Position numbers and translations under genes: made by a program
NCBI GenBank assembly: GCA_035547095.1
Contig: DASZVE010000015.1
Coordinates: forward strand, 17,306-81,305
DNA: 64,000 nucleotides
Direction of reading: 5' to 3'
DNA from: Mucilaginibacter sp.
Lineage (GTDB): Bacteria; Bacteroidota; Bacteroidia; Sphingobacteriales; Sphingobacteriaceae
Notes under the pieces: model-generated
Databases searched by the model: none
What the model was told of the DNA's origin: nothing
Seen by the model: the letters and a program-made list of their open reading frames with translations, nothing else
Shown: positions 6,296 to 55,168 of the stretch, in pieces
How positions within the stretch are numbered: position 1 is the stretch's first letter
Layout: every line of letters starts with the position of its first letter

Positions 6296-6618
6296 AAGAA
6301 GATAATAATAAAGTCTCCCCTTCCGGGGGAGATTTAGAGGGGGCCAGGGGCATTCGCATCACACCGCTCAATTTCGCAACAGCTTTTTTCCTGTTCCTGG
6401 CGGTATACATTTCGATTTACGGTGTCCAGGTTATAGGCGCGCACTACCCCTATGCGCTCAAAAGCTGGATGTTTACCGCCATATTTGTGCTTTTTGCTAT
6501 TGCCGTGTCATTTATGGACCTTATCCTGCGCAATTTTTTCCGCCAGACTAAAAAACTGTGGATAGTGGAGCTAAGCTTTATAACTTTGGCGATTATTTTA
6601 TTTTTACTTGCGAGATAA
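6292..6618 (+). CDS. Hypothetical small membrane protein (start uncertain)
   Basis: The ATG overlaps the helicase stop (ATGA). The first about 20 codons are the 36-nt GC-rich repeat, and three hydrophobic spans follow. Confidence 0.3.
   Translation: MKEDNNKVSPSGGDLEGARGIRITPLNFATAFFLFLAVYISIYGVQVIGAHYPYALKSWMFTAIFVLFAIAVSFMDLILRNFFRQTKKLWIVELSFITLAIILFLLAR
6310..6345 (+). repeat. 36-nt GC-rich hairpin plus mirror-purine-tail element (family C)
   Basis: The sequence reads aaag tctcccc ttccg ggggaga ttt agagggg gcc. The stem pairs 6314-6320 with 6326-6332. The mirror repeat is gggggaga-ttt-agaggggg. Confidence 0.85.
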
Positions 6619-6621
6619 ACA

Positions 6622-6954
6622 ATGAAAAAAGCAGAGATCAAACTCACGATAGACCTGGATGATAACAACGTGCCCGAAAACATCACATGGGAATCGACGG
6701 ATGCGCAGAACAAGGAGGCACTCCCGGTAAAATCGATGATGCTGTCGCTTTGGGACCATAATTACAAAAATACCCTCCGCATCGATCTGTGGACAAAGGA
6801 TATGCCTGTAGACGATATGAAGCGCTTCTTTTACGAGACCCTCCAAACCATGGGCGACAGCTTTCTGAGGGCAACCGGCGAAAAGAACATTGTGGAGGAC
6901 CTGCGCGACTATTGCGCCCATTTTGCCGATAAAATGGAGATCAGCCAGAAATAA
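6622..6954 (+). CDS. gldC: Gliding motility protein GldC
   Basis: 110 aa. LRIDLWTKDMPVDDMKRFFYETLQTMGDSFLRATGEK matches the conserved GldC core as I remember it. Confidence 0.8.
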   Translation: MKKAEIKLTIDLDDNNVPENITWESTDAQNKEALPVKSMMLSLWDHNYKNTLRIDLWTKDMPVDDMKRFFYETLQTMGDSFLRATGEKNIVEDLRDYCAHFADKMEISQK

Positions 6955-6955
6955 C

Positions 6956-7399
6956 ATGAAACTCACGTCATTCGTATCGTTCGCCGGTTTTATAATACTT
7001 ATTGCTGCTACGTTTTGCCCGCTGTTTCGTCCGCTGCACATTGTTAACTGGGACATGTACAAGGCCAACATGCCTTACGGAATCGTGGTATTGCTGATAT
7101 CGGTAGTTGGTATATTGGGAGTGGTTTTGATGCAGCGCAAATTGGTTCGCCTTACGGCCTGGTTATCCGTGATATTGGTGGCGCTGTTTTACGTCCTTTC
7201 GCTGCTGAAGATCCATTACTCATTCACTTTCATACCTTTCCACTCGTTCGAAAAATTCATGGAACGCCAGATCAAATTCAAATGGGGCTGGTGGTTGTTA
7301 TGTATAGGTCCGCTGTTTGCGCTGTTTGGCGCCCTAAAAGACAAACCAAAATATAAAGCGCCTGTTGAGAACACGATGGATCAAAAAGCCGCCGTATAA
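6956..7399 (+). CDS. Hypothetical membrane protein
   Basis: The ATG lies 1 nt after the gldC stop. The protein has four hydrophobic spans. The track ORF 6890 extends upstream into gldC and was trimmed. Confidence 0.5.
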   Translation: MKLTSFVSFAGFIILIAATFCPLFRPLHIVNWDMYKANMPYGIVVLLISVVGILGVVLMQRKLVRLTAWLSVILVALFYVLSLLKIHYSFTFIPFHSFEKFMERQIKFKWGWWLLCIGPLFALFGALKDKPKYKAPVENTMDQKAAV

Positions 7400-7405
7400 T
7401 TTGAG

Positions 7406-8230
7406 ATGACCGAAACACCCGGAATAACCGAGCCACAGCTTTTAGAATTGACAGAACTGGTCAGCCGTGTGCATAGTTTTGATTTTTCGGGTTATTCGCG
7501 TGCTTCGCTAAAGCGGCGCCTGTCGCGCATCATCATGCTCAGGAAGATCAGTGTTGATCAGCTTAAGCAGTTACTTGCCGACGATCCGAAGTTTTTTCAA
7601 TGGTTTTTGGAAGAGGTTACGGTTAATGTAACCGAAATGTTCCGTGATCCGCAGTTTTATAGAGCGCTCAACAGCCAGGTTATCCCTTATTTGACAGCTT
7701 TTCCTAGCGTCAGGGTGTGGAGCGCCGGCTGCTCTTCCGGTGAAGAGGTATACTCCCTCGCTATTTTGTTATACCTTTCGGGTTTGGGCGACAGCTCATT
7801 TATTTACGGCACGGATATCCACACACAGATGCTTAATGAGGCCCGCAACGGCGTTTACAGCCAGCGCAAATTGGATAGCTATGCGGAAAATTATCGTCAG
7901 GCTGAATTGCCTGGCGATTTGTCCGACCATTTCGAAAAAATGAACGATTGCGGGCGCGTTCGCAGCGTTCTAAGGAAAAATACACTTTTTTCGATGCACA
8001 ACCTGATATCCGACAACGCGTTCAATGAATTTCATCTCATCAGTTGCCGTAACGTTTTTATTTATTTCGAGGCTGACATGCAGCAAAAGATATTGCAACT
8101 TTTTTACGAAAGTTTAAGCCCGTATGGGTTTCTATGCCTGGGGTCGAAGGAGACCATACGTTTCCCCGAAATGAAAACCAGGTTCAGGCTGATCAGCTCA
8201 AAAGGAAATATTTACCAAAAGATCGGATAA
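7406..8230 (+). CDS. cheR: CheR-type protein-glutamate O-methyltransferase
   Basis: An N-terminal helical domain (FSGYSRASLKRRLSR) is followed by a SAM-binding segment, VWSAGCSSGEEVYSLAILL. Confidence 0.85.
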   Translation: MTETPGITEPQLLELTELVSRVHSFDFSGYSRASLKRRLSRIIMLRKISVDQLKQLLADDPKFFQWFLEEVTVNVTEMFRDPQFYRALNSQVIPYLTAFPSVRVWSAGCSSGEEVYSLAILLYLSGLGDSSFIYGTDIHTQMLNEARNGVYSQRKLDSYAENYRQAELPGDLSDHFEKMNDCGRVRSVLRKNTLFSMHNLISDNAFNEFHLISCRNVFIYFEADMQQKILQLFYESLSPYGFLCLGSKETIRFPEMKTRFRLISSKGNIYQKIG

Positions 8231-8236
8231 CGGCCT

Positions 8237-8719
8237 TCAGAATAATTTTGTCTGTCCGACTCCCAGCACATTCATTTCATGCTCTAATAACCACTTTTTG
8301 CGCCATAATCCGCCGGCATAACCTGTTAATGATCCGTCCGACCCGATAACCCGGTGGCAGGGCACTACGATGGCCAGGTCGTTTTTGCCGTTGGTTGAGG
8401 CGATAGCACGAATGGCCAGCGGGTTGTTCATCATTTTGGACTGCTGCAGGTAGCTGATGGTCCTGCCGTATGGTATTTTCAGTAAACATTCCCAAACTTC
8501 CTGCTGAAAGGCCGAGCCGGGTTGTTTGATCGGAAAAGTAAACTCCCTGCGTGTTCCGGCAAAATACTCATCCAATTGTTTAGCCGCCTCCAGCAGCAGG
8601 GAAGTAGGCCCATCGCTTTCACCTGTCGCATGGTCCATAACTTTGACGGACGAAATAAACCCGTCTTCTTCCCTTATCCTGGCAACACCGATGGGAGTGG
8701 GGTGGTAGATGATTGGCAT
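8237..8719 (-). CDS. ogt: Methylated-DNA--protein-cysteine methyltransferase
   Basis: Carries the PCHRV active-site motif (VVPCHRVIGSDGSLTGYAGG). Confidence 0.9.
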   Translation of the reverse strand: MPIIYHPTPIGVARIREEDGFISSVKVMDHATGESDGPTSLLLEAAKQLDEYFAGTRREFTFPIKQPGSAFQQEVWECLLKIPYGRTISYLQQSKMMNNPLAIRAIASTNGKNDLAIVVPCHRVIGSDGSLTGYAGGLWRKKWLLEHEMNVLGVGQTKLF

Positions 8720-8722
8720 GTT

Positions 8723-8806
8723 TCAAAGGTACAAAGGCGAAAGGATAAAGGTGAAAGGTTAATCTGGCCATAATCAAACCTTTTACCTTTGGCCTTTTAC
8801 CTTTCA
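8723..8806. repeat. NNAAAGG heptad array (8723-8758) facing its complement CCTTTNN array (8779-8806)
   Basis: The left array reads tcaaagg tacaaagg cgaaagg ataaagg tgaaagg. The right array reads cctttta cctttgg cctttta cctttca. It lies in the divergent ogt/ccmB spacer. Confidence 0.85.
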
Positions 8807-8823
8807 CCTCACAAAAAGTATCT

Positions 8824-9516
8824 TTGCACCGGATGGAACTTCTCGACCAAACCTGGTACCTGCTTAAAAAAGAGATCCTGCTCGAATGGCGCTCGAAGTA
8901 CGCCTTTAATGGGGTGCTGCTTTATGTGGTATCGACCGTGTTTGTTTGCTATATTTCGTTCAAGATCACTCCTGGTTTTGCGGGCAGCTCGGGTTACCCG
9001 GTTGTTTGGAATGTGCTATTCTGGATCATTATGCTTTTTGCCGCGGTAAACGCTATCGCCAAAAGCTTTATGCAGGAGAGCAAGAACCGCCTGCTTTACT
9101 ATTATACCATTGCCGGTCCGCAAGCCGTTATCCTGGCCAAAACCATTTACAATATCCTGCTCATGTCGCTGCTGAGCGTATTGGCGCTGATCATTTACAT
9201 GCTGTTCTTCACCAACACCATTGGCGACCCGCTGTTTTACTTTTTGGCCGTGTTACTGGGCAGCTTTAGCTTTTCTACCGTTTTCACTATGATCTCGGCC
9301 ATCGCTTCCAAAGCAGGCAATAACGGTACGCTGATGGCTATCCTGAGCTTCCCGGTTGTTATTCCCGTCATATTAGTGCTCATCCGCCTGAGCAAAAACG
9401 CCATGGACGGCCTCGAACGCAGCGCTAACTATGAAAACATCGGCGTGCTCTGCGCCATTAATGTCATCGTTGTCGCTACCTCGCTGCTGCTTTTCCCTTA
9501 TTTGTGGAGGGATTGA
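8824..9516 (+). CDS. ccmB: Heme exporter permease CcmB
   Basis: 230 aa with six hydrophobic spans. The CcmB-like C-terminal segment is LSFPVVIPVILVLIRLS. Other ccm genes lie nearby. Confidence 0.7.
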   Translation: MHRMELLDQTWYLLKKEILLEWRSKYAFNGVLLYVVSTVFVCYISFKITPGFAGSSGYPVVWNVLFWIIMLFAAVNAIAKSFMQESKNRLLYYYTIAGPQAVILAKTIYNILLMSLLSVLALIIYMLFFTNTIGDPLFYFLAVLLGSFSFSTVFTMISAIASKAGNNGTLMAILSFPVVIPVILVLIRLSKNAMDGLERSANYENIGVLCAINVIVVATSLLLFPYLWRD

Positions 9517-9520
9517 GGAA

Positions 9521-9548
9521 GTCAGAGGTCTGAAGTCGGAGTGAGTCA
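9521..9548 (+). repeat. Heptad word array GTCNNAG, directly after the ccmB stop
   Basis: The units read gtcagag gtctgaa gtcggag tgagtca. Confidence 0.6.
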
Positions 9549-9672
9549 ACCTTAAAACTCAGAACTTAATAAGTGTAGTGTATCAGCAGAGCCTGCTACA
9601 CTGGCATGATCGTGTCAGTGAGGCTGTATTGATTGAAAATGTTCTGATAACTCATCAATAAGAATTATTTTA

Positions 9673-9701: not shown

Positions 9702-9702
9702 A

Positions 9703-9710: not shown

Positions 9711-9729
9711 CCTCATTAAACTATACCAC

Positions 9730-12808: not shown

Positions 12809-13999
12809 ATGAGTTTCAGAAGGATTATACTGCTTCTCGTTTTTTTACCTTTTTTCTCTAGCGCCCAAACCGTCATCTCAGGTAAAGTAACCACCTCCGA
12901 GTCGCTTACGCCTATTGGAAAAGTCAGCGTTTTCCTGAGCAACTCGTCTTATGGTACTGAAACGGCCGAGGATGGTACATTCAGACTTGTCGGCGTTAAA
13001 CCCGGTCAATACGAACTGGTTGCCAGTTCGGTTGGGTTCCAGGAGTATTCGGAATTCATTTTAGTAGGCAGTTCGCCCATAACAGTCAATATCAAGATGC
13101 TGCCGAAGATGAATATGCTGCGGGGCGTGGTGATATCAAGCAATGCCGACTGGAAAAAGAACTATGAGCTGTTTCGGAAGGATTTTATCGGAGAGTCGGA
13201 GAATGGCAAAAAATGCGATGTTGCAAACCCTCATACTATGAACCTGGTGTACCACGGCAAAAGCCGGATGCTTGAGGCCTGGTCGAACGACTTCCTGGTA
13301 GTGGATAACAGGGCGCTGGGATACCGGGTTAAGTTCCTGGTGGATACTTTTTCGAGCTCGGGCTTGAGTGGTATTGTTGAGTGGCAGGGCAAGGTGGTTT
13401 TCGAGGAAATGAAAGGCAGCGAAGAACAGAAAAAGGAATGGCGTGAGAAACGCGAGCATATCTACTATGGCTCGCAGCGCCAGTTTTTCCGTTCCCTCTA
13501 TAACAACACGCTTACGCAGGATGGGTTCATCATGTATCACCTGAGCCGCGAACCGAACGCCGACAGGCCGCCCGAAGGCGTGATCCTGGCGAAGATCAAA
13601 TACTTCAGGGAAATAAGATTTAACAGGGATTCATTTAATTATTGGGTCGGGAAGGAAAACCTGTCCAAGTATTACCACGAGCACCTGGATAAAACCCCGC
13701 TCCAGCCTTACCAGGTTTTTGCACAAACGAGTAAGCCCGGTTTGTTTGTACTATCGTTTCGGGACTGTTTGTATGTCGTTTATACCAAAAGACGCGAGGA
13801 GACTGATTTTAAGGACGTATACCGGACGCTGGATATGGAAAATTTTGAAACCAGCATACTTACCCTGATGAAGCCCTATGCCATTTTTGATATGAATGGT
13901 GTGGTAGTCGAGAATGTGCCGCTGGCGGAAGGGAGCTGGTCAAAAGCAAAATTGGGAGAACTTTTACCGTTCGATTACGTGCCGGGCGAGAATAAATAG
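12809..13999 (+). CDS. Carboxypeptidase-regulatory-like (CarboxypepD_reg) domain protein
   Basis: A signal peptide is followed by VISGKVTTSESLTPIGKVSVFLSNSSYGTETAEDGTFRLVGVKPGQYELVASSVGF. Confidence 0.7.
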   Translation: MSFRRIILLLVFLPFFSSAQTVISGKVTTSESLTPIGKVSVFLSNSSYGTETAEDGTFRLVGVKPGQYELVASSVGFQEYSEFILVGSSPITVNIKMLPKMNMLRGVVISSNADWKKNYELFRKDFIGESENGKKCDVANPHTMNLVYHGKSRMLEAWSNDFLVVDNRALGYRVKFLVDTFSSSGLSGIVEWQGKVVFEEMKGSEEQKKEWREKREHIYYGSQRQFFRSLYNNTLTQDGFIMYHLSREPNADRPPEGVILAKIKYFREIRFNRDSFNYWVGKENLSKYYHEHLDKTPLQPYQVFAQTSKPGLFVLSFRDCLYVVYTKRREETDFKDVYRTLDMENFETSILTLMKPYAIFDMNGVVVENVPLAEGSWSKAKLGELLPFDYVPGENK

Positions 14000-14108
14000 T
14001 CCGAAAGTCCGGAAGTCCGTGTAAGTCCGGAAGTATAAATAAATGATTGGGCTCAAAACATCCATGTCACTTCTTTCGGACTTTCCGACTTGTGCGGACT
14101 TTCGGACT
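13999..14108. repeat. GTCCGRAA-type element (13999-14034, starts in the stop codon) and its inverted copy (14070-14108)
   Basis: The first copy reads gtccgaaa gtccggaa gtccgtgtaa gtccggaa gt. The second reads cttctttcggactttccgacttgtgcggactttcggact. Confidence 0.85.
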
Positions 14109-22560: not shown

Positions 22561-22803
22561 ATGACAGACGACAAATACGCCCTGCCTATCCACTGGAACG
22601 ATTACGAGGACATTGCTATAGAGCTTTATGAGAAGTTCGGCGATGATTTCGACGAGTCGAAAATATACCGCATCCGTTTTACCGACCTCCTGGAATGGGT
22701 GTTAAGCCTGCCTAACTTTAAGGGTACGCGTGAAGAGTCGAACGAGGGTCACCTGGAGCAGATACAGTCGGCCTGGGTATATGAGTGGCGGGACCACCAG
22801 TAG
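22561..22803 (+). CDS. iscX: Fe-S assembly protein IscX-like
   Basis: 80 aa and acidic. WNDYEDIAIELYEKFGDDFD...IRFTDLLEWV resembles IscX/YfhJ. It sits after fdx, as in isc operons. Confidence 0.6.
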   Translation: MTDDKYALPIHWNDYEDIAIELYEKFGDDFDESKIYRIRFTDLLEWVLSLPNFKGTREESNEGHLEQIQSAWVYEWRDHQ

Positions 22804-22838
22804 GTAGTTTGCAGTTGGCAGTCGTCAGTTTGCATTCC
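22804..22838 (+). repeat. Heptad word array GCAGTTN (5 units), directly after the iscX stop
   Basis: The units read gtagttt gcagttg gcagtcg tcagttt gcattcc. Confidence 0.7.
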
Positions 22839-31326: not shown

Positions 31327-32280
31327 TTATTTTATCATGCCGGCCAGAACGCCTTCTTTAAGGGAGTAGGTGCTTAATACGACATTTCGGATGCCAAGCC
31401 GCCGAATGATATAGCGCGTAACAACTGCTGAAACGACGATCATATCGACGCGCACGGGGATGATAAGCCTATTGGCTGCACGCTCGGAGTGCGACGAGGC
31501 AATAAGTTTGCCGGTTACCTGCAGTAAGTCTTCAAGATCGAATGCATAGCGCTTTATTTGGTCGAGGTCAAATGTGTCGTTCCGTTCCGATTCGATCAGT
31601 GAGGCAAACGTTTCGAACGAACCGGATGAGCCGATAAGATCGGGTAAAGGCATGGCTTTAACAGCATCGAACAAGTTTGTAAGGGTGTTTTCCAGGCAGA
31701 GTTCTAATGCTTCGACAGAATCGGGCGGAATAGGGTCGGTACGATGGAAACGCTCCATCTGTCGCGCAGCGCCGATCTCAAAACTTTGCTTCCATAATAT
31801 GCGGCTTGCGTTACAAATGATAAACTCGATACTGCCCCCGCCGATATCCATGATCAGTGCGTTCTCGCCGGACAGAAGACCGGTTGCCTTGATCCCCTGG
31901 TAAATAAACCCGGCTTCAGTTTCACCGTCGGCGACCTCGATGCTGATACCTGTTTCGTTTTTTACTTTTTCAATAAAGGCCGGACCGTTGGAGGCGTTGC
32001 GGACGGCGGACGTCGCGATGGCCCGGATGTATTGAACGTTATGCGCATCTATTTTATCCCTAAAACTTTTCATGGTGTGCACGCCGCGTTCAAAAGCTTC
32101 CGGCTGAATAATACCTTTATCGATGCCGCCTTCTCCGAGTTTTACGGCGACTTGTTCGCGCACAATTGCCTCGAAGCCGTTGGCCGTACTTTCGGCTATC
32201 AACAAATGAAAAGTATTGGTGCCGAGATCCATCACGGCGGCCCCCCGGCCCCCTGAAGGGGGAGATACTTTACTCATCAT
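31327..32280 (-). CDS. Ppx/GppA-family phosphatase (exopolyphosphatase-like)
   Basis: Contains MDLGTNTFHLLIAE, DIGGGSIEF and an actin-like ATPase fold pattern. The first about 16 codons are repeat-derived, so the start is uncertain (32280 or 32232). Confidence 0.8.
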   Translation of the reverse strand: MMSKVSPPSGGRGAAVMDLGTNTFHLLIAESTANGFEAIVREQVAVKLGEGGIDKGIIQPEAFERGVHTMKSFRDKIDAHNVQYIRAIATSAVRNASNGPAFIEKVKNETGISIEVADGETEAGFIYQGIKATGLLSGENALIMDIGGGSIEFIICNASRILWKQSFEIGAARQMERFHRTDPIPPDSVEALELCLENTLTNLFDAVKAMPLPDLIGSSGSFETFASLIESERNDTFDLDQIKRYAFDLEDLLQVTGKLIASSHSERAANRLIIPVRVDMIVVSAVVTRYIIRRLGIRNVVLSTYSLKEGVLAGMIK

Positions 32281-32327
32281 TTTCTAAGATAAACAAAATT
32301 TGTTCCCCCTTCAGGGGCTAGGGGTTG
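32239..32327. repeat. Two degenerate family-C units in inverted orientation (32239-32271 minus, 32301-32327 plus)
   Basis: The first unit reads ggccccccggccccctgaagggggagatacttt. The second reads tgttcccccttcaggggctaggggttg. Confidence 0.6.
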
Positions 32328-33554
32328 TTACTCCTTATAAAAGAACCATTTGGCCAATTCCTTAAAGTTGGTCTTTTTGCCGTACATCAGGATCCCAACA
32401 CGGTATATCCTGGCGGCCACATAAGTAGTAAACAGGAAACCGGCTACCATCAGGCACATCGAAAGCGCCAGTTGCCATCCCGGCACATGGAAGGGTATTC
32501 GCACCATCATGGCCACAGGCGCCGTGAATGGTATGATAGACAGCCAAACTGCCAAAGTGCTGTCGGGCGCCTGGAAAAGATAGGACACCGACAGGATATA
32601 CGTAAACAATAACGGCAGCGTGATGGGGAACATAAACTGCTGTGTTTCCGTCTCACTGTCTACTGCTGATCCTACGGCTGCAAAAAGTGCGCTATAAAGC
32701 AAGAAACCGCTTATCCAGTAAAATCCAAAACAAGCCAGTTCATACCCGGCGCTCGAAGCCATAGTTTGAATGAATTTATAGGTCGAGTTTTGTGCGGCCA
32801 TATTATGGCCCAGCATATTGCTGACCAGGTATGACAAGACGATCCACAAAGCGAATTGTGTAAGCCCCACCAAACCAACGCCGATGATCTTACCGGCCAT
32901 CAACTGGAACGGTTTTACCGACGATACGATCACTTCGATGATACGGCTCGTTTTTTCCTCAATAACCCCCCGCATTACCTGTGCGCCGTAAATGAACAGC
33001 GACATATAGATCAATATCGCCCCTGCAAATGCGAGCGCGTAAGCCGAACCGATACTGGTGCTTTTGTCGCCTTCAGCAGTCATTTCCACCGTCTTAACCA
33101 CCACATTGCTTTTTACTTTGTGAAGCTGTGCGGTATCGATGCCCATCTTTACCAAACTGTCGCCGGACACTATGCTGTTCATTTGCTGCTGAATGTCGTC
33201 CGACAAGGCAAGCGTATTTTTTTTCTTCGCGTACAATTCAGAACTATCCGTCTTGCCGGCCGGGATAAGTAAGGCCATATCATCGTCGTTAAGCGATGCC
33301 TTAACGGCGTTCAGCGGCTTATCCGGATAGTTGAATTTCAAGGTTTTTGTATTGGCGAATCTGCCTTTAAACTGGTGACTGTTGTCGATTACGTTGACAA
33401 TATGAACAGTTTGATCCTTGTTATTGGCCAGGTAAGCTATGGTGCCGAACATCGCGGCAATAAGCGCCGGGACCAATAGGGTCATGATGATGAACGAGCG
33501 TTTTCTTACACGGGTAAAATATTCCCGGTGTATGATCAGAAAGATTTTGTTCAT
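32328..33554 (-). CDS. ABC-2 type transporter permease (NatB-like)
   Basis: 408 aa. An N-terminal TM segment and a large loop are followed by 5 TM segments. It sits directly downstream of the ATPase. Confidence 0.7.
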   Translation of the reverse strand: MNKIFLIIHREYFTRVRKRSFIIMTLLVPALIAAMFGTIAYLANNKDQTVHIVNVIDNSHQFKGRFANTKTLKFNYPDKPLNAVKASLNDDDMALLIPAGKTDSSELYAKKKNTLALSDDIQQQMNSIVSGDSLVKMGIDTAQLHKVKSNVVVKTVEMTAEGDKSTSIGSAYALAFAGAILIYMSLFIYGAQVMRGVIEEKTSRIIEVIVSSVKPFQLMAGKIIGVGLVGLTQFALWIVLSYLVSNMLGHNMAAQNSTYKFIQTMASSAGYELACFGFYWISGFLLYSALFAAVGSAVDSETETQQFMFPITLPLLFTYILSVSYLFQAPDSTLAVWLSIIPFTAPVAMMVRIPFHVPGWQLALSMCLMVAGFLFTTYVAARIYRVGILMYGKKTNFKELAKWFFYKE

Positions 33555-34771: not shown

Positions 34772-35770
34772 ATGAATTGTAAACTGTTTCTTTTCTGTAT
34801 AGGTGTGCTTTTTATGGCGAACGCAAACGCTCAGCTTAAGGACCCTGTACGCATAATCTTCGACAGCGATATGGGGCCGGATTACGACGACGTAGGCGCG
34901 ATCACTATTTTACATGCCTTAGCCGATAAAGGCGAAGCCAGAATACTGGCCACCATGGCAAGCACTAAATATGAGGGCGTGGCCGGCGTTCTCAATGTAT
35001 TCAATACCTATTTTAACAGGGCTAATCTGCCCGTCGGTGTGCCGAAAGGCTACGCCCTGGAATTACGCGACTGGCAGCATTGGACGGATAGTTTACTGGC
35101 GAAGTATCCGCACAAAATAAAAAGTAACGTGCAGGCCTGGGATGCCGTGACACTATATCGTAAACTACTGGCCTCACAGCCCGATAAAAGCATAACCATC
35201 GTAACGATCGGTTTCCTCACCAATCTTTCCAACCTGTTAAATACCGGCGCGGATGAATACTCCAAACTTAGCGGTAGGGAACTCGTCGCAAAAAAAGTCA
35301 GGTTGCTGGTGTCCATGGGCGGCAAATTCCCTTCCGGTTCTGAATTTAATGTGATGAAAGATGCCAAAGCCTCGCAGAATGTTTATCAAAACTGGCCATC
35401 GCAGGTCATTTTCAGCGGTTTCGAAATAGGCGAGAAGATACTCGCCGGACTGCCTTTAATCCATAACGAATCTATCAAAAACGACCCGGCCAAAGATGCT
35501 TTTCGCATCGCTATACCGCAAGCCAAAGAGGATTCACTCGGCCGAAAAAGTTGGGATGAAACCGCAGTCCTGGTAGCGATAAAAGGATACTCGCCTTATT
35601 ACACTCTGCATTCCGGCCATATCAAAGTCGCCGATGATGGTCAGAACACCTGGGACGATAGCGGGACCGGGCAGTCTTATTTGGTTGAGAGGATCGATTA
35701 TAAGGAAGTGGAGAAGCTTATTAATGAGTTGATACAGCATCAACCTGTTCAGGCGAAAGGTAAAAGGTGA
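34772..35770 (+). CDS. Nucleoside hydrolase-like protein, secreted
   Basis: A signal peptide is followed by IIFDSDMGPDYDDVGAITILHALA (the IU-nucleoside hydrolase Asp cluster). The last codons and the stop lie in the heptad array. Confidence 0.65.
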   Translation: MNCKLFLFCIGVLFMANANAQLKDPVRIIFDSDMGPDYDDVGAITILHALADKGEARILATMASTKYEGVAGVLNVFNTYFNRANLPVGVPKGYALELRDWQHWTDSLLAKYPHKIKSNVQAWDAVTLYRKLLASQPDKSITIVTIGFLTNLSNLLNTGADEYSKLSGRELVAKKVRLLVSMGGKFPSGSEFNVMKDAKASQNVYQNWPSQVIFSGFEIGEKILAGLPLIHNESIKNDPAKDAFRIAIPQAKEDSLGRKSWDETAVLVAIKGYSPYYTLHSGHIKVADDGQNTWDDSGTGQSYLVERIDYKEVEKLINELIQHQPVQAKGKR

Positions 35771-35783
35771 AAGGATAAAGGTG
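35751..35783 (+). repeat. NNAAAGG heptad array (4 units) containing the nucleoside hydrolase stop codon
   Basis: The units read cgaaagg taaaagg tgaaagg ataaagg. The 18-mer aggtgaaaggataaaggt (35765-35782) recurs inverted at 37266-37283. Confidence 0.85.
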
Positions 35784-37221: not shown

Positions 37222-37283
37222 TTCTTTCGGACTTTCCGACTTATGCGGACTTCCGGACTAAACTAACCTTTATCCTTTCACCT
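37222..37283 (-). repeat. Reading on the dnaJ strand: NNAAAGG array starting at the dnaJ stop (37283 down to 37266), then a GTCCGRAA-type element (37259 down to 37222)
   Basis: The plus strand reads ttctttcggactttccgacttatgcggacttccggact ... acctttatcctttcacct. Confidence 0.85.
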
Positions 37284-38440
37284 CATTCAAAATACTCCTT
37301 CATCCGTTCGAAGAAACTCTTTTCGTTCTTACCCGGACTCGGTTTAAAATTCGGCGAGTTTTGCAGCTTTTCCAGCAATTCGCGTTCTTCCCGGCTTAAT
37401 GCTTTTGGCGTCCAGATATTGATGTGGATCAGTTGGTCGCCGCGGTGGTATGAATTTACCTCCGGAACGCCTTTGCCCTTCAGGCGCAATATCTTACCGC
37501 CCTGTGTGCCGGGGTCGATCTTGATCTTGGCTTTGCCGTCTATTGTCGGCACTTCGACGTTCGTACCCAGAGCCGCATCGATAAAGCTGACATGCAGGTC
37601 GTAGATAATGTTATTGCCGTCGCGTTTTAAGGTTTCGTGGGGTATTTCTTCGATCAGGATGATCAGGTCGCCCGCAATGCCGCCGCGCGGCGCGGCATTA
37701 CCTTTGCCGCCCATGCTCAATTGCATGCCTTCGCTAACGCCTGCGGGTATGTTTATGCTGATCAGCTCTTCATCGCGTACTACTCCTTCGCCATGACAAA
37801 CCGTACATTTGGCAGTGATCACCGTGCCTTCGCCGTTACAGGTGGGGCAGGTGCTGGTGGTTTGCATCTGGCCGAGGATGGTATTCGTTACCCGGCGCAC
37901 TGCACCCTGGCCGCCGCAGGTCTTACAGGTCTGCACCGACGAGCGGTCTTTCGCGCCCGTACCGTCGCACGTTTTACAGGCGACCTGTTTGTTTACCTTA
38001 ATTTTCTTTTCGGCTCCGTTAGCGATCTCTTCAAGCGTTAGCCTTACCTTTATGCGCAGGTTGCTGCCGCGTTGCACACGGCGGCCGCCGCCTTGTCTTC
38101 CGCCGCCAAAAAAGCCCTCGAAGGGACTTCCGCCGCCGAAAATGTCACCAAACTGGCTGAATATATCTTCCATATTCATGCCGCCGCCGCCAAAACCGCC
38201 TCCATTGGCCGATTGTGCGTTGGCCGCATGCCCGAACTGGTTGTAACGCTGGCGCTTATCCGGATTGCTAAGCACCTCGTATGCTTCGGCCGCCTCCTTG
38301 AACTTTTCCTCTGCCTCTTTGTCACCCGGATTTTTGTCAGGGTGGTATTTGATGGCCATCTTACGATAAGCCTTTTTGATCTCTTCGGCATCGGCGCCCC
38401 TGGCGACACCCAGTACGTCGTAATAATCTCTTTTTGACAT
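37283..38440 (-). CDS. dnaJ: Molecular chaperone DnaJ
   Basis: Has the J domain (HPDKNPG), a G/F region and four CxxCxGxG zinc-finger repeats. Confidence 0.95.
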
Positions 38441-38447: not shown

Positions 38448-38541
38448 ATTATTGAATTATTGAATTACAGAATTATCGAATAGGCCTCATTAGCAAACTA
38501 TCAATAACTCATTAATTCAATAATTCAGTAAATCAATAATT
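38448..38541. repeat. Octad word array AATTAYNG (38448-38479) and complementary CANTAANT array (38502-38541) in the dnaJ/grpE spacer
   Basis: The left array reads aattattg aattattg aattacag aattatcg. The right array reads caataact cattaatt caataatt cagtaaat caataatt. Confidence 0.8.
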
Positions 38542-39094: not shown

Positions 39095-39153
39095 GATCCG
39101 GTACCGCAAATCAAGTATCCTGCCAAGGCTTAAAAGACGACAAGCTGACAGAG

Positions 39154-39281
39154 AGTTTTGAGTTGGCAGTTCTAAGTTGACAGTAAGCAGTAGTCAGTTG
39201 GCAGTTTACAGTTATCGGTTGGCACAATTGGTAAGTTGATTTAAATACTGCCCACTGTGAACTGCCCACTGGAAACTGATT
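39154..39281. repeat. Ten in-register heptads AGTNNNN (39154-39223) followed by five in-register heptads ACTGNNN (39247-39281)
   Basis: The first array reads agttttg agttggc agttcta agttgac agtaagc agtagtc agttggc agtttac agttatc ggttggc. The second reads actgccc actgtga actgccc actggaa actgatt. Confidence 0.9.
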
Positions 39282-39964: not shown

Positions 39965-40168
39965 TTACAATTCCAATTTTAGGATCTGTCCGAAAGGCAG
40001 CTCCCTGACAATATTCATAATATATTCCGTCCTGGCGCCCAAACCAACCTTTTCCAGTGATTTTTCAGGCCTGTCTACCCTGAAATAAGCCAGCAAAGTG
40101 AACTGGTCGTCGCGCAGCTGCACGTAATCCGGTATCTTGGCGACGCCTTTTACTTTGATAATATACAT
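39965..40168 (-). CDS. Hypothetical 67-aa protein
   Basis: The stop lies 1 nt before the ftsE start. The start is taken at ATG 40168, because the upstream extension reads through the heptad array. Confidence 0.4.
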   Translation of the reverse strand: MYIIKVKGVAKIPDYVQLRDDQFTLLAYFRVDRPEKSLEKVGLGARTEYIMNIVRELPFGQILKLEL

Positions 40169-40175
40169 TTTGAGG

Positions 40176-40248
40176 TTACAGGTAAAAGGACCAAGGTTAA
40201 AGGTTGATGCGGACTTACCTTTCACCTTTTACCTTTTGGCTTTCACCT
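40176..40248. repeat. NNNNAGG heptad array facing a CCTTTNN array, with one GTCCG-type unit between them
   Basis: The left array reads ttacagg taaaagg accaagg ttaaagg. The middle reads ttgatgcggactta. The right array reads cctttca cctttta ccttttgg ctttca. Confidence 0.8.
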
Positions 40249-40268
40249 CCTCCAAAGGTATTGTTATT

Positions 40269-47313: not shown

Positions 47314-47383
47314 TTATAGTTCATGGTTCATAGTTCATAGGCAATTCCGTATTTGCCATGAACTATGAACCATGATCCATGAA
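47314..47383. repeat. Heptad word array TCATRGT (47314-47341) and complementary CYATGAA array (47356-47383), directly after hisIE
   Basis: The left array reads ttatagt tcatggt tcatagt tcatagg. The right array reads ccatgaa ctatgaa ccatgat ccatgaa. Confidence 0.85.
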
Positions 47384-47971: not shown

Positions 47972-47992
47972 ATCCTATCAATGTGCGTTGGA

Positions 47993-48067
47993 TGTCATAT
48001 TGAGGCACTCGAAACATGCGGGCAAAGGCCTTCGCGCTCATACTTCCGGTGCCTCAGTATGACACCC
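47993..48067. repeat. 75-nt hairpin element, copy A (hisF/hisIE spacer)
   Basis: By hand count it matches 48865-48939 at 70 of 75 positions. The terminal 14-nt arms are tgtcatattgaggc / gcctcagtatgaca. Confidence 0.9.
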
Positions 48068-48076
48068 TTTTTATTT

Positions 48077-48841: not shown

Positions 48842-48864
48842 TTTAATAAATATTTGAGGGCGGC

Positions 48865-48939
48865 TGTCATGTTGAGGCACTCGAAACATGCGGGCAAAGG
48901 CCTTCGCGCACATACTTCGAGAGCCTCAGTATGACACCC
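48865..48939. repeat. 75-nt hairpin element, copy B (hisA/hisF spacer)
   Basis: See copy A. The internal arms gaggcactcgaa / ttcgagagcctc also pair. Confidence 0.9.
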
Positions 48940-48944
48940 TTTTG

Positions 48945-50290: not shown

Positions 50291-50300
50291 TTTGTTGTTA

Positions 50301-50361
50301 GAACCAAGAATCAAGAGTCAAGACAGAATCTATCTTGGTTCTTGGCTCTTGATTCTTGGTT
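50301..50361. repeat. Heptad word array GARTCAA (50301-50328) and complementary CTTGRYT array (50334-50361) in the hisB/hisH spacer
   Basis: The left array reads gaaccaa gaatcaa gagtcaa gacagaa. The right array reads cttggtt cttggct cttgatt cttggtt. Confidence 0.85.
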
Positions 50362-50365
50362 CTCT

Positions 50366-51514: not shown

Positions 51515-52557
51515 TGGTAATCCTGTAAAGTTTGTAATAGGGTAGTGTTTTCAGTCGGCGTGCCCACGGTAATGCGCAGACATCCCTCACACAATTCAAC
51601 CTTCGAGCGGTCGCGGACAATGATACCTTTGCCTACCAAAAAGTTATAAATGCCCTTCGGATCCGTCGTCTTAACCAGGATAAAATTAGCGTCGGAAGGG
51701 TATATATCGATTACGAAACCGAAGTCTTTCAGCTCGAGTACCAATTTGTCCCTTTGTGCCAAAGTTTCGCGTATCCAATTGTTTACCTGGTCGATATTTT
51801 GCAATGCTTTGAGCGCCAATTGCTGCGACGCCTCATTCACGTTGTATGGCGGCTTCACTTTGTTCATCACCTCGATGACCTCCTCGCTGGCAAAGGCCAT
51901 GCCCACCCGCAGCCCCGCCAAACCCCATGCTTTGGACAGCGTTTGCAGCACCACCAGGTTGGCATATTCGGTGAGCTCCTGTATAAAGCTCTTCTGGCGA
52001 CTGAAATTAATATACGCCTCATCGATCACCACCAGGCCGTTAAAATTGGCCAGTATGGTTTGTATATCATCACGGTGCATTGAATTGCCTGTCGGATTGT
52101 TCGGCGAACAGATAAAGATCAGTTTGGTATGCGCGTCAATAGCTTCGGCAATACCTTCCAGGTTCAACTGGTATTCTTCCGTCAGCGGCACGCGCTTGAT
52201 GGCGATATCATTGATATTTGCCGAAACCTCGTACATGCCATAGGTAGGAGGAACAAGGATCACATTGTCTACACCCGGGTTGCAAAAGCTGCGGAACAGG
52301 ATGTCAATGGCTTCGTCGCTGCCATTGCCCAAAAAGATATTGCGCGGCGGTACACCTTTTATCTCGCTCAGGCGCAGCTTAACCTGGTACTGCAGCGGAT
52401 CGGGATAGCGGTTGTATTGCTGCTCCAGCGGCGAACCGAAAGCGTTCTCATTTGCATCCAAATACACACTTGCCTCGCCCTGGAACTCGTCGCGTGCGGA
52501 GGAGTAGGGCTTGAGGTTTTTGATGTTTTGCCTTATTATATTGTTGATGTCAAACAT
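51511..52557 (-). CDS. hisC: Histidinol-phosphate aminotransferase
   Basis: A class-II aminotransferase pattern, with SPNNPTG and the [17 protein letters not shown] lysine. It overlaps hisB by 4 nt. Confidence 0.9.
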
Positions 52558-52570
52558 TTTAAATCTTGTT

Positions 52571-52634
52571 TGTCATTCCGAGCGCAGCGAAGAATCTAAT
52601 TAAATAAGATGCTTCACTTCGTTCAGCACGACAG
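52571..52634. repeat. Imperfect hairpin element of the cattccgagcgcagcgaagaatc type (hisD/hisC spacer)
   Basis: The arms are tgtcattccgagcgcagcgaagaatc and gatgcttcacttcgttcagcacgaca. By hand count, 18 of 25 arm positions are complementary. Confidence 0.7.
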
Positions 52635-53921
52635 TTATTGCTTAAGTCGTACACTCACTGCATTCCTATGGGCTCTTAACCCTTCCAGTTCAGCCAAAGT
52701 CTCCACAGCCGGACCAATATTTCTGATTCCTTCCGGGCTAATGTGCTGAAAGGTGATCTTCTTAACAAATGAGTCAACTGACATCCCGGAATACGCTCGT
52801 GCATAGGCGCTCGTCGGTAAAGTGTGATTCGTGCCCGAAGCATAGTCCCCCGCGCTTTCCGGCGTCAGGTTACCGAGAAATACTGAACCCGCATTGACGA
52901 TGTTAGCGGTTAGCTGTCGCCAGTTGGCAGTGGCCAAGATCAAATGCTCCGGTGCATAAGCATTGCTGAAATCCATGGCCTCATCCAGGTTGTTTACCAA
53001 AACGATGTATGAATTATCGATCGCTTTTTTCGCGATAGCTGCCCTTGGCAATTCCTTTAGTTGGCGTTCTACTTCTGCGCTTGCTTTTTCGGCTATTTCC
53101 CTGGAGGTCGTTACCAGTATCGACTGACTATCTACGCCATGCTCAGCCTGTGCCAGCAGATCGGCCGCCACAAATTCGGGCACCGCACTGTCATCAGCTA
53201 TGACTAAAACTTCCGATGGTCCGGCGGGCATGTCGATAGCTGTGTTAGTCGTCGATTGAATAATAGTTTTTGCTTTGGTTACATACTGGTTACCCGGGCC
53301 AAAAATCTTATCAACCTTGGGGATACTTTCGGTTCCGTAAGCCATGGCTGCTATTGCCTGCGCGCCGCCGGTAAGATAAACCTTTTCGATTCCTAACAAT
53401 TGCGAAACATAAGCGATGTAACCGTTCACTTTGCCATCTTTCTGCGGCGGCGAACAAACTACGATCTCTCGGCAGCCGGCTATCTGCGCCGGGATGCCCA
53501 GCATTAAGAAGGTGCTTGGCAAAACAGCGGTTCCACCGGGAATGTATAAGCCAACCTTTTCTATTGGCCTTAATTCGCGCCAGCAGGTGACGCCGGGCAT
53601 AGTCTCCACCTTATCCTCGCTTCTCAGCTGTGATTGGTGGAACTTATAAATATTATTATACGCTGTTTGCAGGGCCTTTTTTTGCTCCGGAGCAATAGTA
53701 GAGGATAATTGCTCAAGCTCTTCCTTTTCAATGGCCAGGCTTGTTAGCTCAACCTTATCAAACTTAGCGGCATACTCCAGCAACGCCTGGTCGCCATTCG
53801 TACGGACGTTCTGTATCACATCCTCCACAACGGCACGTATCTCATCCGCCGGATCAACATTTCGCTGAACCAGTTTTTGGATATCCGTTTTGCTTAAGTC
53901 TGAATAGTTGTACGTCTTCAT
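52635..53921 (-). CDS. hisD: Histidinol dehydrogenase
   Basis: 428 aa. Contains DMPAGPSEVLVIAD and AEHGVDSQ. Confidence 0.95.
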   Translation of the reverse strand: MKTYNYSDLSKTDIQKLVQRNVDPADEIRAVVEDVIQNVRTNGDQALLEYAAKFDKVELTSLAIEKEELEQLSSTIAPEQKKALQTAYNNIYKFHQSQLRSEDKVETMPGVTCWRELRPIEKVGLYIPGGTAVLPSTFLMLGIPAQIAGCREIVVCSPPQKDGKVNGYIAYVSQLLGIEKVYLTGGAQAIAAMAYGTESIPKVDKIFGPGNQYVTKAKTIIQSTTNTAIDMPAGPSEVLVIADDSAVPEFVAADLLAQAEHGVDSQSILVTTSREIAEKASAEVERQLKELPRAAIAKKAIDNSYIVLVNNLDEAMDFSNAYAPEHLILATANWRQLTANIVNAGSVFLGNLTPESAGDYASGTNHTLPTSAYARAYSGMSVDSFVKKITFQHISPEGIRNIGPAVETLAELEGLRAHRNAVSVRLKQ

Positions 53922-53922
53922 T

Positions 53923-53958
53923 GGCCCCCTCTAAATCTCCCCTGGAAGGGGAGACTTT
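53923..53958 (-). repeat. Family-C 36-nt element (sense on the his mRNA strand)
   Basis: Its reverse complement is aaagtctccccttccaggggagatttagagggggcc, 1 mismatch from the copy at 6310-6345. Confidence 0.85.
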
Positions 53959-53989
53959 TGATTTTGTTTATGTTTCAACCTCACTTTAA

Positions 53990-54027
53990 GCCCTTCCGCC
54001 AACTGGCGGAGAGGGTTGGGGTGGGGC
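53990..54027. repeat. GC-rich hairpin with a G-rich tail (family D), ending at the hisG stop
   Basis: The sequence reads gcccttccgcc aact ggcggagagg gttggggtgggg. The architecture is as at 565-600. Confidence 0.7.
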
Positions 54028-54879
54028 TTATAAAATTATCTTTTCTATCGGCATCACCACAATACCCTGCGCGCCGGCTTGCTTTAACTGGCTGATCCTG
54101 TCCCAAAAATCGCGTTCCGGGATAACGGTATGCACCGCAACCCAGCCTTCCTCGGCCAATGGCACTACCGACGGACTTTTAACCCCCGGCAGCAGCCTGG
54201 TTATCTCAGGCAGACGGACTTTCTCAACATTTAACACTACATATTTGGTCTCGGCTGCCCGGAGAACCGACTGCACCCTTTGGATCAGTTCTTTAATTAG
54301 CTCTTCGTTTTCACTGCCTCTGCGGCCGATTAGCACCGCTTCCGACGACATCACATCTGCAAAGGGCTTCAATCCGTTGCTTTTGAGTGTTCCGCCGGTA
54401 GATACCAGGTCGCAAATAGCATCGGCAAGACCCAAACCCGGCGATATTTCTACCGAACCCGATATGGTGCGGATGTCGGCCTCGATGTTTTTCGACCTTA
54501 GAAATTTCCCCAATATGACCGGGTACGTAGTGGCGATGGATTTACCGTGCAGCTCCGACAGGTCTTTAGGGTGCTCGGTGTTGGGTACCGCAATTTTCAG
54601 CGAGCAGCGGCCGAAACCCAACTTTTGCAGGTAGCTGACATTAACCTCGGTTTCCTGGATCACGTTTTCGCCTACTATGCCCAGGTCGGCGATGCCATCC
54701 TGTACATATTCGGGGATATCGTCATCACGCAGGAACAATATTTCGAGCGGGAAATTGGAAACGGGGGAGATAAGCGAGCTTTTGTAATTCTCGAAATTTA
54801 AGCCGCAATTTTTCAGTAATTCAACTGATTTTTCGTTGAGCCTGCCAGATTTCTGGATGGCTATTTTGAGTGTTTTCAC
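54028..54879 (-). CDS. hisG: ATP phosphoribosyltransferase (long form)
   Basis: 283 aa. Contains KIAIQKSGRL, DLVSTGGTL and a C-terminal regulatory domain. The start codon is GTG. Confidence 0.9.
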   Translation of the reverse strand: MKTLKIAIQKSGRLNEKSVELLKNCGLNFENYKSSLISPVSNFPLEILFLRDDDIPEYVQDGIADLGIVGENVIQETEVNVSYLQKLGFGRCSLKIAVPNTEHPKDLSELHGKSIATTYPVILGKFLRSKNIEADIRTISGSVEISPGLGLADAICDLVSTGGTLKSNGLKPFADVMSSEAVLIGRRGSENEELIKELIQRVQSVLRAAETKYVVLNVEKVRLPEITRLLPGVKSPSVVPLAEEGWVAVHTVIPERDFWDRISQLKQAGAQGIVVMPIEKIIL

Positions 54880-55038
54880 TTGTATTTTTTAAACTATTAA
54901 ATGGAACGGTTGGGGTTATTTCACGTAGAAACAATACATTATCTTATCGCCTGGTGGCGATGGTGCAGATGAAGATGATGTAGCCTGTAACCGTTCATTT
55001 TTTTTATAGTTAACTATGGACGAAGTGCCGCAAATATA
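54880..55038 (-). promoter_or_regulatory. his operon control region: candidate -7 box, leader ORF and leader RNA structures
   Basis: TATATTTG lies on the minus strand (55031-55038). The 12-bp palindrome atagttaactat is at 55006-55017. The hairpin AUCGCC-ACCA-GGCGAU lies within the His codons. The 8-bp long-range pair is GAACGGUU (54989-54996) / AACCGUUC (54904-54911). Confidence 0.55.
54939..54998 (-). CDS. his operon leader peptide, 19 aa: MNGYRLHHLHLHHRHQAIR
   Basis: Hand translation of the minus strand gives ATG AAC GGT TAC AGG CTA CAT CAT CTT CAT CTG CAC CAT CGC CAC CAG GCG ATA AGA TAA. That is 6 His in 9 consecutive codons. The stop lies 59 nt upstream of hisG. Confidence 0.65.
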   Translation of the reverse strand: MNGYRLHHLHLHHRHQAIR

Positions 55039-55133
55039 AAGTTTATTTAACAAAAGCAAGTGTTAAGTTTAAATTATGTAATGAGCGGTCGATTTTATTG
55101 AGAGTTTGATATAGACATGACGAGGCCAGCCCC

Positions 55134-55168
55134 AAAGTCCTCCCTACCGGGGAGGATTTAGGAGGGGC
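55134..55168 (+). repeat. Family-C element, covarying copy
   Basis: The sequence reads aaag tcctccc taccg gggagga ttt aggaggg gc. The stem and the mirror tail are both changed coherently relative to the copy at 6310. Confidence 0.85.

Follow-up and report, generated by a model that had tools for sequence, protein, structure and literature searches.

The window analyzed here, 64,000 nucleotides (nt) of a Mucilaginibacter sp. contig (DASZVE010000015.1), carries the his operon (hisG, hisD, hisA, hisF and hisIE) together with genes for a DEAD-box helicase, an exopolyphosphatase (ppx) and a GldC-like protein. Set among these genes are copies of a GC-rich unit of about 36 nt, in which a short hairpin is followed by a purine-rich tail. 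A first-pass annotation had described this unit as a free-standing motif; our analysis points instead to one end of a larger mobile element, in which units stand as inverted pairs, often around a DUF559 gene. Within the window the units make up two composites, one at the hisG-hisD junction and one between a permease-like gene and ppx, and two solo units (Table 1).

Repeat units in the window

The three copies reported by the first-pass annotation are all present where it placed them. A search of the window with the 36-mer, allowing up to 3 mismatches, returned copies 1 and 2 only, and none is expected by chance (0 in 100 shuffles); the third, variant copy was also recovered by a purine/pyrimidine hairpin pattern. 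The two degenerate units that the annotation had placed between the permease-like gene and ppx are real as well, and belong to a related all-G-stem family with the design CCCCC-loop-GGGGG, short linker, G-run. No DUF559 gene was found in the 64-kb window, and an Rfam scan of the window returned no family.

At the hisG-hisD junction the ...GGGGGC end of copy 2 lies 2 nt ahead of the hisD ATG (53921-53919). Its degenerate partner, which was missing from the earlier list of units, abuts the hisG stop codon (54028-54030) at its other end. The same arrangement of units occurs at the orthologous hisG-hisD junction of another locus, L120. In the second composite, one all-G-stem unit precedes the probable ppx start codon, the ATG at 32232, by 6-8 nt, and its partner abuts the stop codon of the permease-like gene (32328-33554, minus strand).

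The first-pass annotation also had units running into the coding sequence of three genes. This holds for copy 1, whose translation, KVSPSGGDLEGA, forms codons 7-18 of open reading frame (ORF) 6292-6618, and for copy 3, which supplies the last 8 codons (EPLLNPPR) and the TAG stop codon of ORF 55144-56664 (minus strand), with the TAG in the hairpin loop. For ppx the unit does fall inside the longest ORF, but it lies upstream of the likely true start at 32232. The longest ppx ORF starts at 32280 and runs through the repeat unit, and the NCBIfam model aligns from residue 15. The ATG at 32232 gives the usual MDLGTN start; annotation of the longest ORF would add 16 repeat-encoded residues. A partner for copy 1 was sought upstream, and none was found. 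ORF 6292-6618, which encodes a small membrane protein, overlaps the TGA stop of the helicase gene (4886-6295) in an ATGA at 6292-6295 and sits just upstream of the GldC-like gene (6622-6954).

Table 1. Hairpin-tail units of the window and their parts
Feature	Position	Strand	Description
Copy 1, solo unit, type A	6310-6346	+	AAAGTCTCCCCTTCCGGGGGAGATTTAGAGGGGGCC; in frame in ORF 6292-6618
Copy 1, head	6310-6313	+	AAAG
Copy 1, pyrimidine arm	6314-6320	+	TCTCCCC
Copy 1, loop	6321-6325	+	TTCCG
Copy 1, purine arm	6326-6332	+	GGGGAGA
Copy 1, linker	6333-6335	+	TTT
Copy 1, mirror tail	6336-6342	+	AGAGGGG, then terminal GGCC
All-G-stem unit, start-codon-side end of permease-ppx composite	32239-32271	-	AAAGTATCTCCCCC TTCA GGGGG CC GGGGGG CC
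A/T-rich spacer of permease-ppx composite	32272-32300		29 nt
All-G-stem partner unit	32301-32327	+	TTCCCCC TTCA GGGG CT AGGGG
Copy 2, type A, hisD-start-codon-side end of ORF-less hisG-hisD composite	53922-53958	-	Matches copy 1 except for one loop mismatch
A/T-rich spacer between the inverted units of hisG-hisD composite	53959-53987		29 nt
Degenerate partner unit, head-to-head with copy 2	53988-54027	+	AAG, CCCTTCCGCC, AACT, GGCGGAGAGGG, TT, GGGGTGGGGC
Copy 3, solo unit, type B	55134-55169	+	TCCTCCC / GGGAGGA / AGGAGGG; antisense to ORF 55144-56664 (-)

Distribution of the units

Reference genomes, one per species, were scanned with a pattern in which the pyrimidine arm, the purine arm and the tail each had four unconstrained positions. 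The scan identified at least 132 copies at no fewer than 119 loci beyond the window. The taxa among the matches listed are all Bacteroidota or Ignavibacteriaceae; the Bacteroidota matches are mostly Mucilaginibacter, and include Pedobacter, Chitinophagaceae, Flavobacteriaceae and Cytophagales. Among 2.9 million viral contigs there were just 18 matches.

The scan pattern fixed 18 bases, which biases the first 132 copies toward the types here called A to D. For this reason the family-level tests used other hairpins in the same loci, together with loci selected through hisD. We collected all perfect hairpins with a homopyrimidine 5' arm in the DNA fetched, about 1.4 Mb of related sequence, and also took 80 metagenomic loci chosen by their hisD gene (75-86% identical) and not by the element. 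A literature search (exact sequence, encoded peptide, DUF559, mirror repeats, and repetitive extragenic palindromic (REP) sequences with their REP-associated tyrosine transposases (RAYTs)) found no published description, most subscription journals lying outside its reach. The element family thus appears not to have been described previously, though an earlier description may exist.

The tail mirrors the stem

In type A units the pyrimidine arm TCTCCCC and the purine arm GGGGAGA are followed by the tail AGAGGGG (rarely AGTGGGG). The corresponding segments are TCCTCCC, GGGAGGA and AGGAGGG or AGGTGGG in type B; TCCTTCC, GGAAGGA and AGGATGG in type C; and TCTTCCC, GGGAAGA and AGAAGGG in type D. 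The tail is the purine arm reversed, with G kept as G and A becoming either A or T. In the loci fetched, nearly all hairpins with a homopyrimidine arm bear such a mirror tail, on exactly one side: 85 of 86 with the arm TCTCCCC, 34 of 35 with CCCTCCC, 28 of 29 with TCCTCCC and 13 of 13 with CCTTCCC. The order of the arms is equally regular, with 218 hairpins having an all-pyrimidine 5' arm and an all-purine 3' arm, against 5 with the reverse order. In the main families the sequence at the head of the unit is (A/T)AAG.

The first-pass annotation had inferred a three-way covariation from two variants, and a statistical test of coupled substitutions among the three segments extends it to 21 stem families. 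When each distinct purine arm was counted once, the tail tracked the stem, with 18 of the 21 families following the mirror rule perfectly. Permuting the tails among the families gave a mean summed score of 110.4 (sd 3.9, maximum 126), as compared with 143 observed, a value reached in 0 of 20,000 permutations. Among unique combinations of arm and tail, a stem G was matched by a tail G in 185 of 197 cells, and a stem A was matched by A in 39, T in 21, C in 4 and G in 5. Tail length follows stem length as well: stems of 5, 7, 8 and 9 have tails of 5-6, 8, 8 and 9 nt, respectively. In the hisD-selected loci, mirror tails were found on 12 of 37 strand instances with an all-pyrimidine arm, versus 10 of 440 hairpins of mixed composition. 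The three-way covariation is real, and is not the product of a few amplified subfamilies.

A correlation devoid of structural meaning would arise if a few subfamilies had been copied many times, so that variants of stem and tail were inherited together. Types A and B do dominate the set of copies, and many copies are near-identical across genera. Yet the rule survives the counting of each purine arm only once, where no permutation of the tails comes close; it is seen also in loci chosen through hisD; and tail length covaries with stem length. This descent-only explanation was tested and is disfavored, and we regard it as highly improbable.

The order of bases in the tail also bears on the suggestion that each unit switches between a hairpin and a G-quadruplex, with arm and tail selected together as the quadruplex and the non-G positions serving as its loops. 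The CCCTCCC family, with GGGAGGG-TT-GGGTGGGG, has a canonical quadruplex motif; most families contain four runs of two or more Gs, for the most part two-tetrad motifs; and single non-G positions favor T over A and tend to exclude C, as do the loops of stable quadruplexes. A quadruplex needs no mirror order, however, and in the 17 families with a purine arm that differs from its own reversal, every tail follows the mirror order (a score of at least 5 of 7, mostly 7 of 7), with GGAGGGG the only arm for which the direct order scores 7 of 7 as well. An intramolecular quadruplex is impossible for GGGAAGA followed by AGAAGGG, and the dominant type A (G5-N9-G5) could form only a weak two-tetrad structure in competition with a hairpin of -8 kcal/mol as DNA and -16 kcal/mol as RNA. 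Nor would quadruplex formation predict that tail and stem agree in length. Because the tails are in mirror order, we reject the quadruplex as the sole cause of the pattern, and a switch of this kind seems to us a poor prospect.

In types A to D the first base of the 5-nt loop is nearly always T or A (sometimes C or G) and the last is G, as in TACCG, AACCG, TTCCG, TCCCG and TGAAG, an exception being copy 2 of the window, with TTCCA. With such a loop a T-G or A-G mismatch caps the stem, and the G run of the purine arm grows to five. Imperfect stems contain T-G wobbles (about 8) more often than C-A mismatches (about 4).

Units stand as inverted pairs

Pairs of units within 150 nt of one another are oriented head-to-head in 78 cases, tail-to-tail in 1 and in tandem in 3, and the paired units are mostly of unlike stem families. 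The head of a unit faces its partner and not a gene; in the full element the AAAG heads point inward and the G-rich tails outward. Three forms of the element were found: one of about 0.5 kb that carries a DUF559 ORF between the units, composites with a short spacer, and solo units, which we read as remnants of paired elements. The composites are 70-125 nt long, with spacers of about 17-60 nt (65 composites), those with a spacer of 20-40 nt measuring 80-125 nt. They often occupy an entire gap between genes, starting at one stop codon and ending 0-5 nt short of the following ATG. Their ends read GCCCC...GGGGC, with only an A at -1 and a T at +1 shared by the flanks, a pattern that is inverted and not direct.

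In two loci (L021, about 3180-3290 on the plus strand, and L101, on the minus strand) the left unit, upstream of the pattern match, is split between tail and hairpin, between ...CCTAAA and ATCC..., by an insert of 20-55 nt that begins cggc(a/g)(t/a)agccctcatg... These split units suggest nested insertion at a fixed point inside the units.

DUF559 genes lie between the units

Wherever a gene stood between inverted units (11 of 11 cases), it was DUF559. Conversely, each of the 11 DUF559 genes studied is flanked by units on both sides as far as its contig reaches, the one exception (L145) having its left unit present and its right side beyond the contig end. In the first 955 kb, 7 of 7 DUF559 domains are flanked on both sides. 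DUF559 genes selected by protein similarity alone (L218/L220, L221 and L224) likewise lie between inverted hairpin-plus-mirror-tail units, of various families. The assignment rests on Pfam matches to PF04480 (E 1e-31 to 1e-36), and the nearest structure is PDB 3HRL (E 1.6e-17). The product is an endonuclease of the PD-(D/E)XK fold and the Vsr/EDxHD type; in published work, DUF559 is placed in the Vsr clade beside the EDxHD homing endonuclease I-Bth0305I (PMC3424549, PMC9403480, PMC3239194).

Units also occur in coding sequence. Twenty-one lie inside long ORFs, 20 of them in a single frame that reads KVSPxGGDLEGA or KVLPxGEDLGGA. Seven in-frame insertions of the longer form were found, in leuS (L012, L089), metH (L083, L107), acs (L118 and L119, at two different sites) and truB (L079, at the 3' end of the gene). 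Each insert consists of an antisense left unit (encoding APSKSPPVGET and the like), a domain of about 120 residues and a sense right unit, the units encoding linkers rich in Gly, Pro and Ser. In the MetH of L083, 162 residues take the place of a 6-residue linker of E. coli MetH (1BMT). Host sites are shared across taxa, leuS being occupied in L012, L089, P0001 and P0009 and metH in L083, L107 and P0005, and database proteins with the same insert and unit-encoded linkers include IspG, MetH, LeuRS, WecB, a DegT aminotransferase, an RNase H and a GT2 glycosyltransferase. No Rfam intron family was found in 10 DUF559 loci, and the inserts contain no intein domain, Pfam identifying only DUF559 and MTES_1575. 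Upstream of the interrupted metH in L083, at 2147-2256, is an S-adenosylmethionine (SAM) riboswitch (RF00162, 65.6 bits).

In rumen and gut metagenome contigs (L218/L219), a free-standing DUF559 ORF with units lies inside a pyruvate:ferredoxin oxidoreductase-like gene region. The flanks are a POR/PFOR_II part and a TPP_enzyme_C part, separate genes of 622 and 350 residues, and the element may either split one gene or occupy a natural subunit boundary.

The nature of the gene between the units weighs on another explanation, namely that these are REP-type units, or inverted doublets of them (REPINs), moved by a Y1 (HUH) transposase such as a RAYT or one of the IS200/IS605 type, in which case AAAG and the tail would provide guide and cleavage sequences and DUF559 would be a passenger. 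The units are indeed short palindromes of high copy number that are mostly intergenic; they form inverted doublets of unlike partners, as in bacterial interspersed mosaic elements (BIMEs) and REPINs; and the conserved 5' AAAG at the foot of the hairpin resembles the guide sequence of IS608. Against this, DUF559 occupies the interior in every case and no RAYT was seen, though no RAYT screen was made. The head AAAG also differs from the GTAG or CGTC that, next to the palindrome, defines the described REP superfamilies (PMC3733652). We judge an origin of this kind to be very unlikely.

Variation at the hisG-hisD junction

Comparison of the hisG-hisD junction in the 80 relatives revealed a variable state. 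The junction is empty or nearly so in L121 (TAG-ttggcc-ATG), L123, L136, L182 and L186, an empty gap amounting to only about 6 nt, and in the other 75 or so relatives it is filled by differing families of units or by other palindromes. A type A unit with a partner of another family is found in L120, L125, L162, L163, L166 and L196, and a solo type A unit in L187, L192 and L199. The all-G-stem family occupies the junction in about 25 loci and the CCTCTCC family in several, and in about 30 related loci the whole interval between stop codon and ATG is taken up by heptamer-repeat palindromes. This is a presence/absence and family-replacement polymorphism at a single orthologous site.

The position of units between genes invites the explanation that they act in RNA, as an intercistronic module whose hairpin stabilizes or terminates transcripts and whose tail, with AGGAGG or GAGG, resembles a Shine-Dalgarno sequence, mobility being secondary. 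The ATG of a long ORF lies within 60 nt downstream in 55 of 135 copies, with a mode of exactly 2 nt and before unrelated genes. Units of types A and B are found on the start-codon side in 48 cases and on the stop side in 19, as judged by crude ORF-based calls for co-directional gene pairs. When folded as RNA, a composite forms two hairpins closed by GCCCC/GGGGC (z = -4.8), and every intercistronic junction examined in the his operon of the window bears a palindromic element. The pairs are inverted, however, so that one unit of each is always antisense in the transcript; units are found in frame deep within leuS, metH and acs; and an action in RNA leaves the mirror rule unexplained. Adjacency to an ATG is largely trivial, since any sequence that fills the gap of about 6 nt between hisG and hisD ends beside the ATG. 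The sharp spacing of 2 nt, at first suggestive, follows from insertion into such a gap, and we came to disfavor the Shine-Dalgarno reading of the tail. Spacing appropriate to that reading (5-10 nt before the start codon) is present in 28 of 135 copies, and half of the paired units face a stop codon. In Bacteroidota, Shine-Dalgarno pairing is generally low or unused, and RNA is reported not to form purine-motif triplexes. As a primary explanation, a module acting in RNA thus appears unlikely.

A proposed triplex fold at the element ends

We consider it somewhat more likely than not that the 36-nt unit is the terminal inverted-repeat unit of small mobile elements of Bacteroidota, some of them carrying DUF559, and that the ends of these elements are marked by a triplex. 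The judgment is a joint one: beside the architecture, the association with DUF559, the polymorphism and the covariation, all of which are observed, it takes in a triplex, a role at the level of DNA and recognition by a nuclease, which we infer. Each unit is a hairpin of 5-9 bp with a pyrimidine and a purine arm, a linker of 2-4 nt and a purine tail that is apparently maintained as the mirror image of the arm; the strand that bears this design is, at both ends, the one whose 3' end points outward. When single-stranded or extruded, that strand would form a hairpin whose major groove accepts the tail as an antiparallel third strand, through the triplets G·G-C, A·A-T and T·A-T. Such a fold would set the boundary of the element at a fixed spot near the hairpin loop, and the DUF559 nuclease, or host recombination and repair, would recognize or cut it, leading to spread and turnover.

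We have found only one simple explanation that would account for the mirror rule, a purine-motif triplex formed when single-stranded DNA folds back on itself. An antiparallel purine third strand requires G·G-C, A·A-T and T·A-T triplets, which is exactly the mirror rule, and the substitutions observed are consistent with this code (G with G; A with A or T), of which the first-pass annotation had named G·G-C and A·A-T. The frequent T variants of the tail fit a purine motif on the tail strand and not a pyrimidine motif on its complement. Of DNA and RNA, between which the first-pass annotation had not chosen, a role in DNA is favored by the two-fold inverted arrangement of the units. The more specific proposal, that a fold confined to DNA at both ends sets the cut site of the Vsr-like nuclease and that the ends are recognized through a triplet code, is a tentative one, which we put forward as possible but doubtful.

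Several other sources of the mirror rule were considered and rejected. A protein that reads duplex DNA offers none, as B-DNA has no symmetry that would relate a sequence to its mirror image. When Watson-Crick and G-U pairs between the tail and the pyrimidine arm were assessed by hand, a good match was obtained just for the GGAGG core of type B, which is its own mirror image; such pairing is poor in other families and is made worse by A-to-T changes in the tail. ViennaRNA, which models Watson-Crick and G-U pairing only, gives the hairpin with the tail unpaired. Pairing of the tail with the partner unit does not explain covariation within a unit, because partners mostly come from unlike families, and pairing between them is limited to the terminal GCCCC/GGGGC. 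Coding constraint in the KVSPxGGDLEGA and APSKSPPVGE frames provides no route from the needs of codons or linkers to mirror symmetry. A search for known RNA families in the window and in 10 DUF559 loci gave only the one unrelated SAM riboswitch.

A number of observations weigh against mobile elements with triplex-marked ends. No target-site duplication was found, either in the flanks or by comparison of empty with filled hisG-hisD sites. Only 11 copies bear DUF559, as compared with hundreds of ORF-less units; a lone PD-(D/E)XK nuclease of the DUF559 type is not a known transposase; and DUF559 could be a homing-endonuclease gene that invaded pre-existing composites. The arms are short, at 5-9 nt. 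A total of some 15 bp or more is usually required for classical H-DNA, and the mirror tract, at 17-21 nt with its linker, stands at the short end of known formers. Physiological K+ disfavors G-rich purine-motif triplexes, and the four G runs present in most families allow for a contribution from G-quadruplexes. Finally, the start-side bias of types A and B hints at selection tied to transcription or translation, and the units may in addition have acquired a role in host RNA, as a ribosome-binding site, stabilizer or terminator.

Other palindromic elements in the window

The window contains further palindromic elements. Palindromes or tandem arrays with a 7-nt period are found between genes at 22798-22836, 39146-39227, 47316-47380, 50300-50363 and 38449-38531; others of the kind are at 4873-4936, 6190-6274, 8727-8820, 13998-14108, 35743-35782, 37222-37294, 40165-40259 and 63656-63701. 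Examples of the heptamers are (CAGTTGG/CAGTTTG)n, (AAGGTGA/AAGGCGA)n, (GTCCGGA/GTCCGAA)n and (GTTCATA/GTTCATG)n. The element at 47316-47380 folds as a hairpin whose stem spans about 23 bp (z = -8.75), and that at 6190-6274 encodes the C-terminal tail of the DEAD-box helicase. Heptamer elements adjoin hairpin-tail units in other genomes (L001, L002, L073, L074 and L078). Another palindromic element, of 82 nt, is present as two direct copies that are 93% identical (47990-48071 and 48862-48943), with an outer stem GTCATATTGAGGCAC...GTGCCTCAGTATGAC (z = -4.9 as DNA). These copies lie at the hisA-hisF and hisF-hisIE junctions, so that no gap examined in the his operon is without a palindromic element of some kind.

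Implications

Whether triple-helical DNA has a selected function in the cell is a long-standing question, and the presence of at least 21 compensatory variants of stem and tail that follow the purine-motif code makes it experimentally tractable. If the proposed fold is correct, these elements would represent a new class of mobile element, with ends recognized by a triplet code rather than by proteins reading the DNA sequence, which has spread into intergenic sites and also, in frame, into essential genes of Bacteroidota. They would also constitute the first case in which comparative covariation reveals that a DNA triple helix is under selection in bacteria. The domain DUF559, whose function is not known, appears here as cargo: a selfish element found throughout the phylum carries it between structured inverted repeats. 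Its occurrence as an internal domain of essential enzymes (LeuRS, MetH, Acs, IspG) is a new mode of carriage for an endonuclease gene, without intron or intein. For annotation, the elements account for the recurrent peptides KVSPTGGDLEGA and APSKSPPVGE and for odd domain fusions in Bacteroidota, and they flag errors in start codons and gene boundaries, such as that of ppx in the window.

Comparison with known systems

The units share with H-DNA and with synthetic polypurine reverse-Hoogsteen hairpins a homopurine mirror repeat across a short T-rich linker. Their substitutions obey the same triplets, and the order of segments, pyrimidine arm, loop, purine arm, linker and second purine tract, is that of engineered intramolecular triplex oligonucleotides. 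They differ in having arms of only 5-9 nt, in that the pyrimidine partner is supplied in cis by the hairpin, and in being a repeated mobile element, and the triplex in them is a predicted one.

The ends of IS200/IS605 elements offer a second parallel. In IS608 the cleavage site is recognized by DNA-DNA contacts with a guide at the hairpin foot. Both systems have single-stranded hairpin ends and a flanking segment tied to another by a rule other than antiparallel Watson-Crick pairing, and they share the idea, in the present case a proposal, that DNA rather than protein positions the cut. In the present elements the enzyme belongs to another family, and the covarying segment is the whole stem (7-9 nt) and not a tetranucleotide.

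Miniature inverted-repeat transposable elements (MITEs), the Rickettsia palindromic elements and the Correia elements of Neisseria resemble the composites in their size of about 100 nt and their terminal inverted repeats. As with MITEs, the ORF-less composites look derived from a longer coding form with the same families of units at both ends, and a presence/absence polymorphism of the MITE type is seen at the orthologous hisG-hisD site. Like the Rickettsia elements, the present ones insert in frame into protein genes and do not inactivate them. Unlike MITEs, the elements described here show no target-site duplication, their longer form encodes a Vsr-like nuclease and not a DDE transposase, and each terminal repeat is itself a hairpin with a mirror tail.

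The REP, BIME and REPIN sequences of Proteobacteria, mobilized by RAYTs, are likewise palindromic units of 20-40 nt, high in copy number and mostly located between genes. They too form inverted doublets of two unlike types of unit with a short spacer, carry a tetranucleotide at the foot of the hairpin and flank the gene for the associated enzyme. The present units have the head AAAG and a DUF559 nuclease of the PD-(D/E)XK fold, where those systems have GTAG or CGTC and a Y1 HUH transposase. Further differences are the mirror tail that covaries with the stem, the frequency of in-frame insertion, and the occurrence of the same units across families of the phylum.

The EDxHD/DUF559 homing endonucleases such as I-Bth0305I (PMC3239194, PMC3424549) belong to the same clade of nucleases (PF04480/3HRL) and are also selfish genes residing in conserved host genes. 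The elements analyzed here involve no group I or group II intron and no intein, and are bounded instead by inverted hairpin-tail units. They are translated through as an internal domain of the host protein, and they occupy many host sites as well as intergenic junctions.

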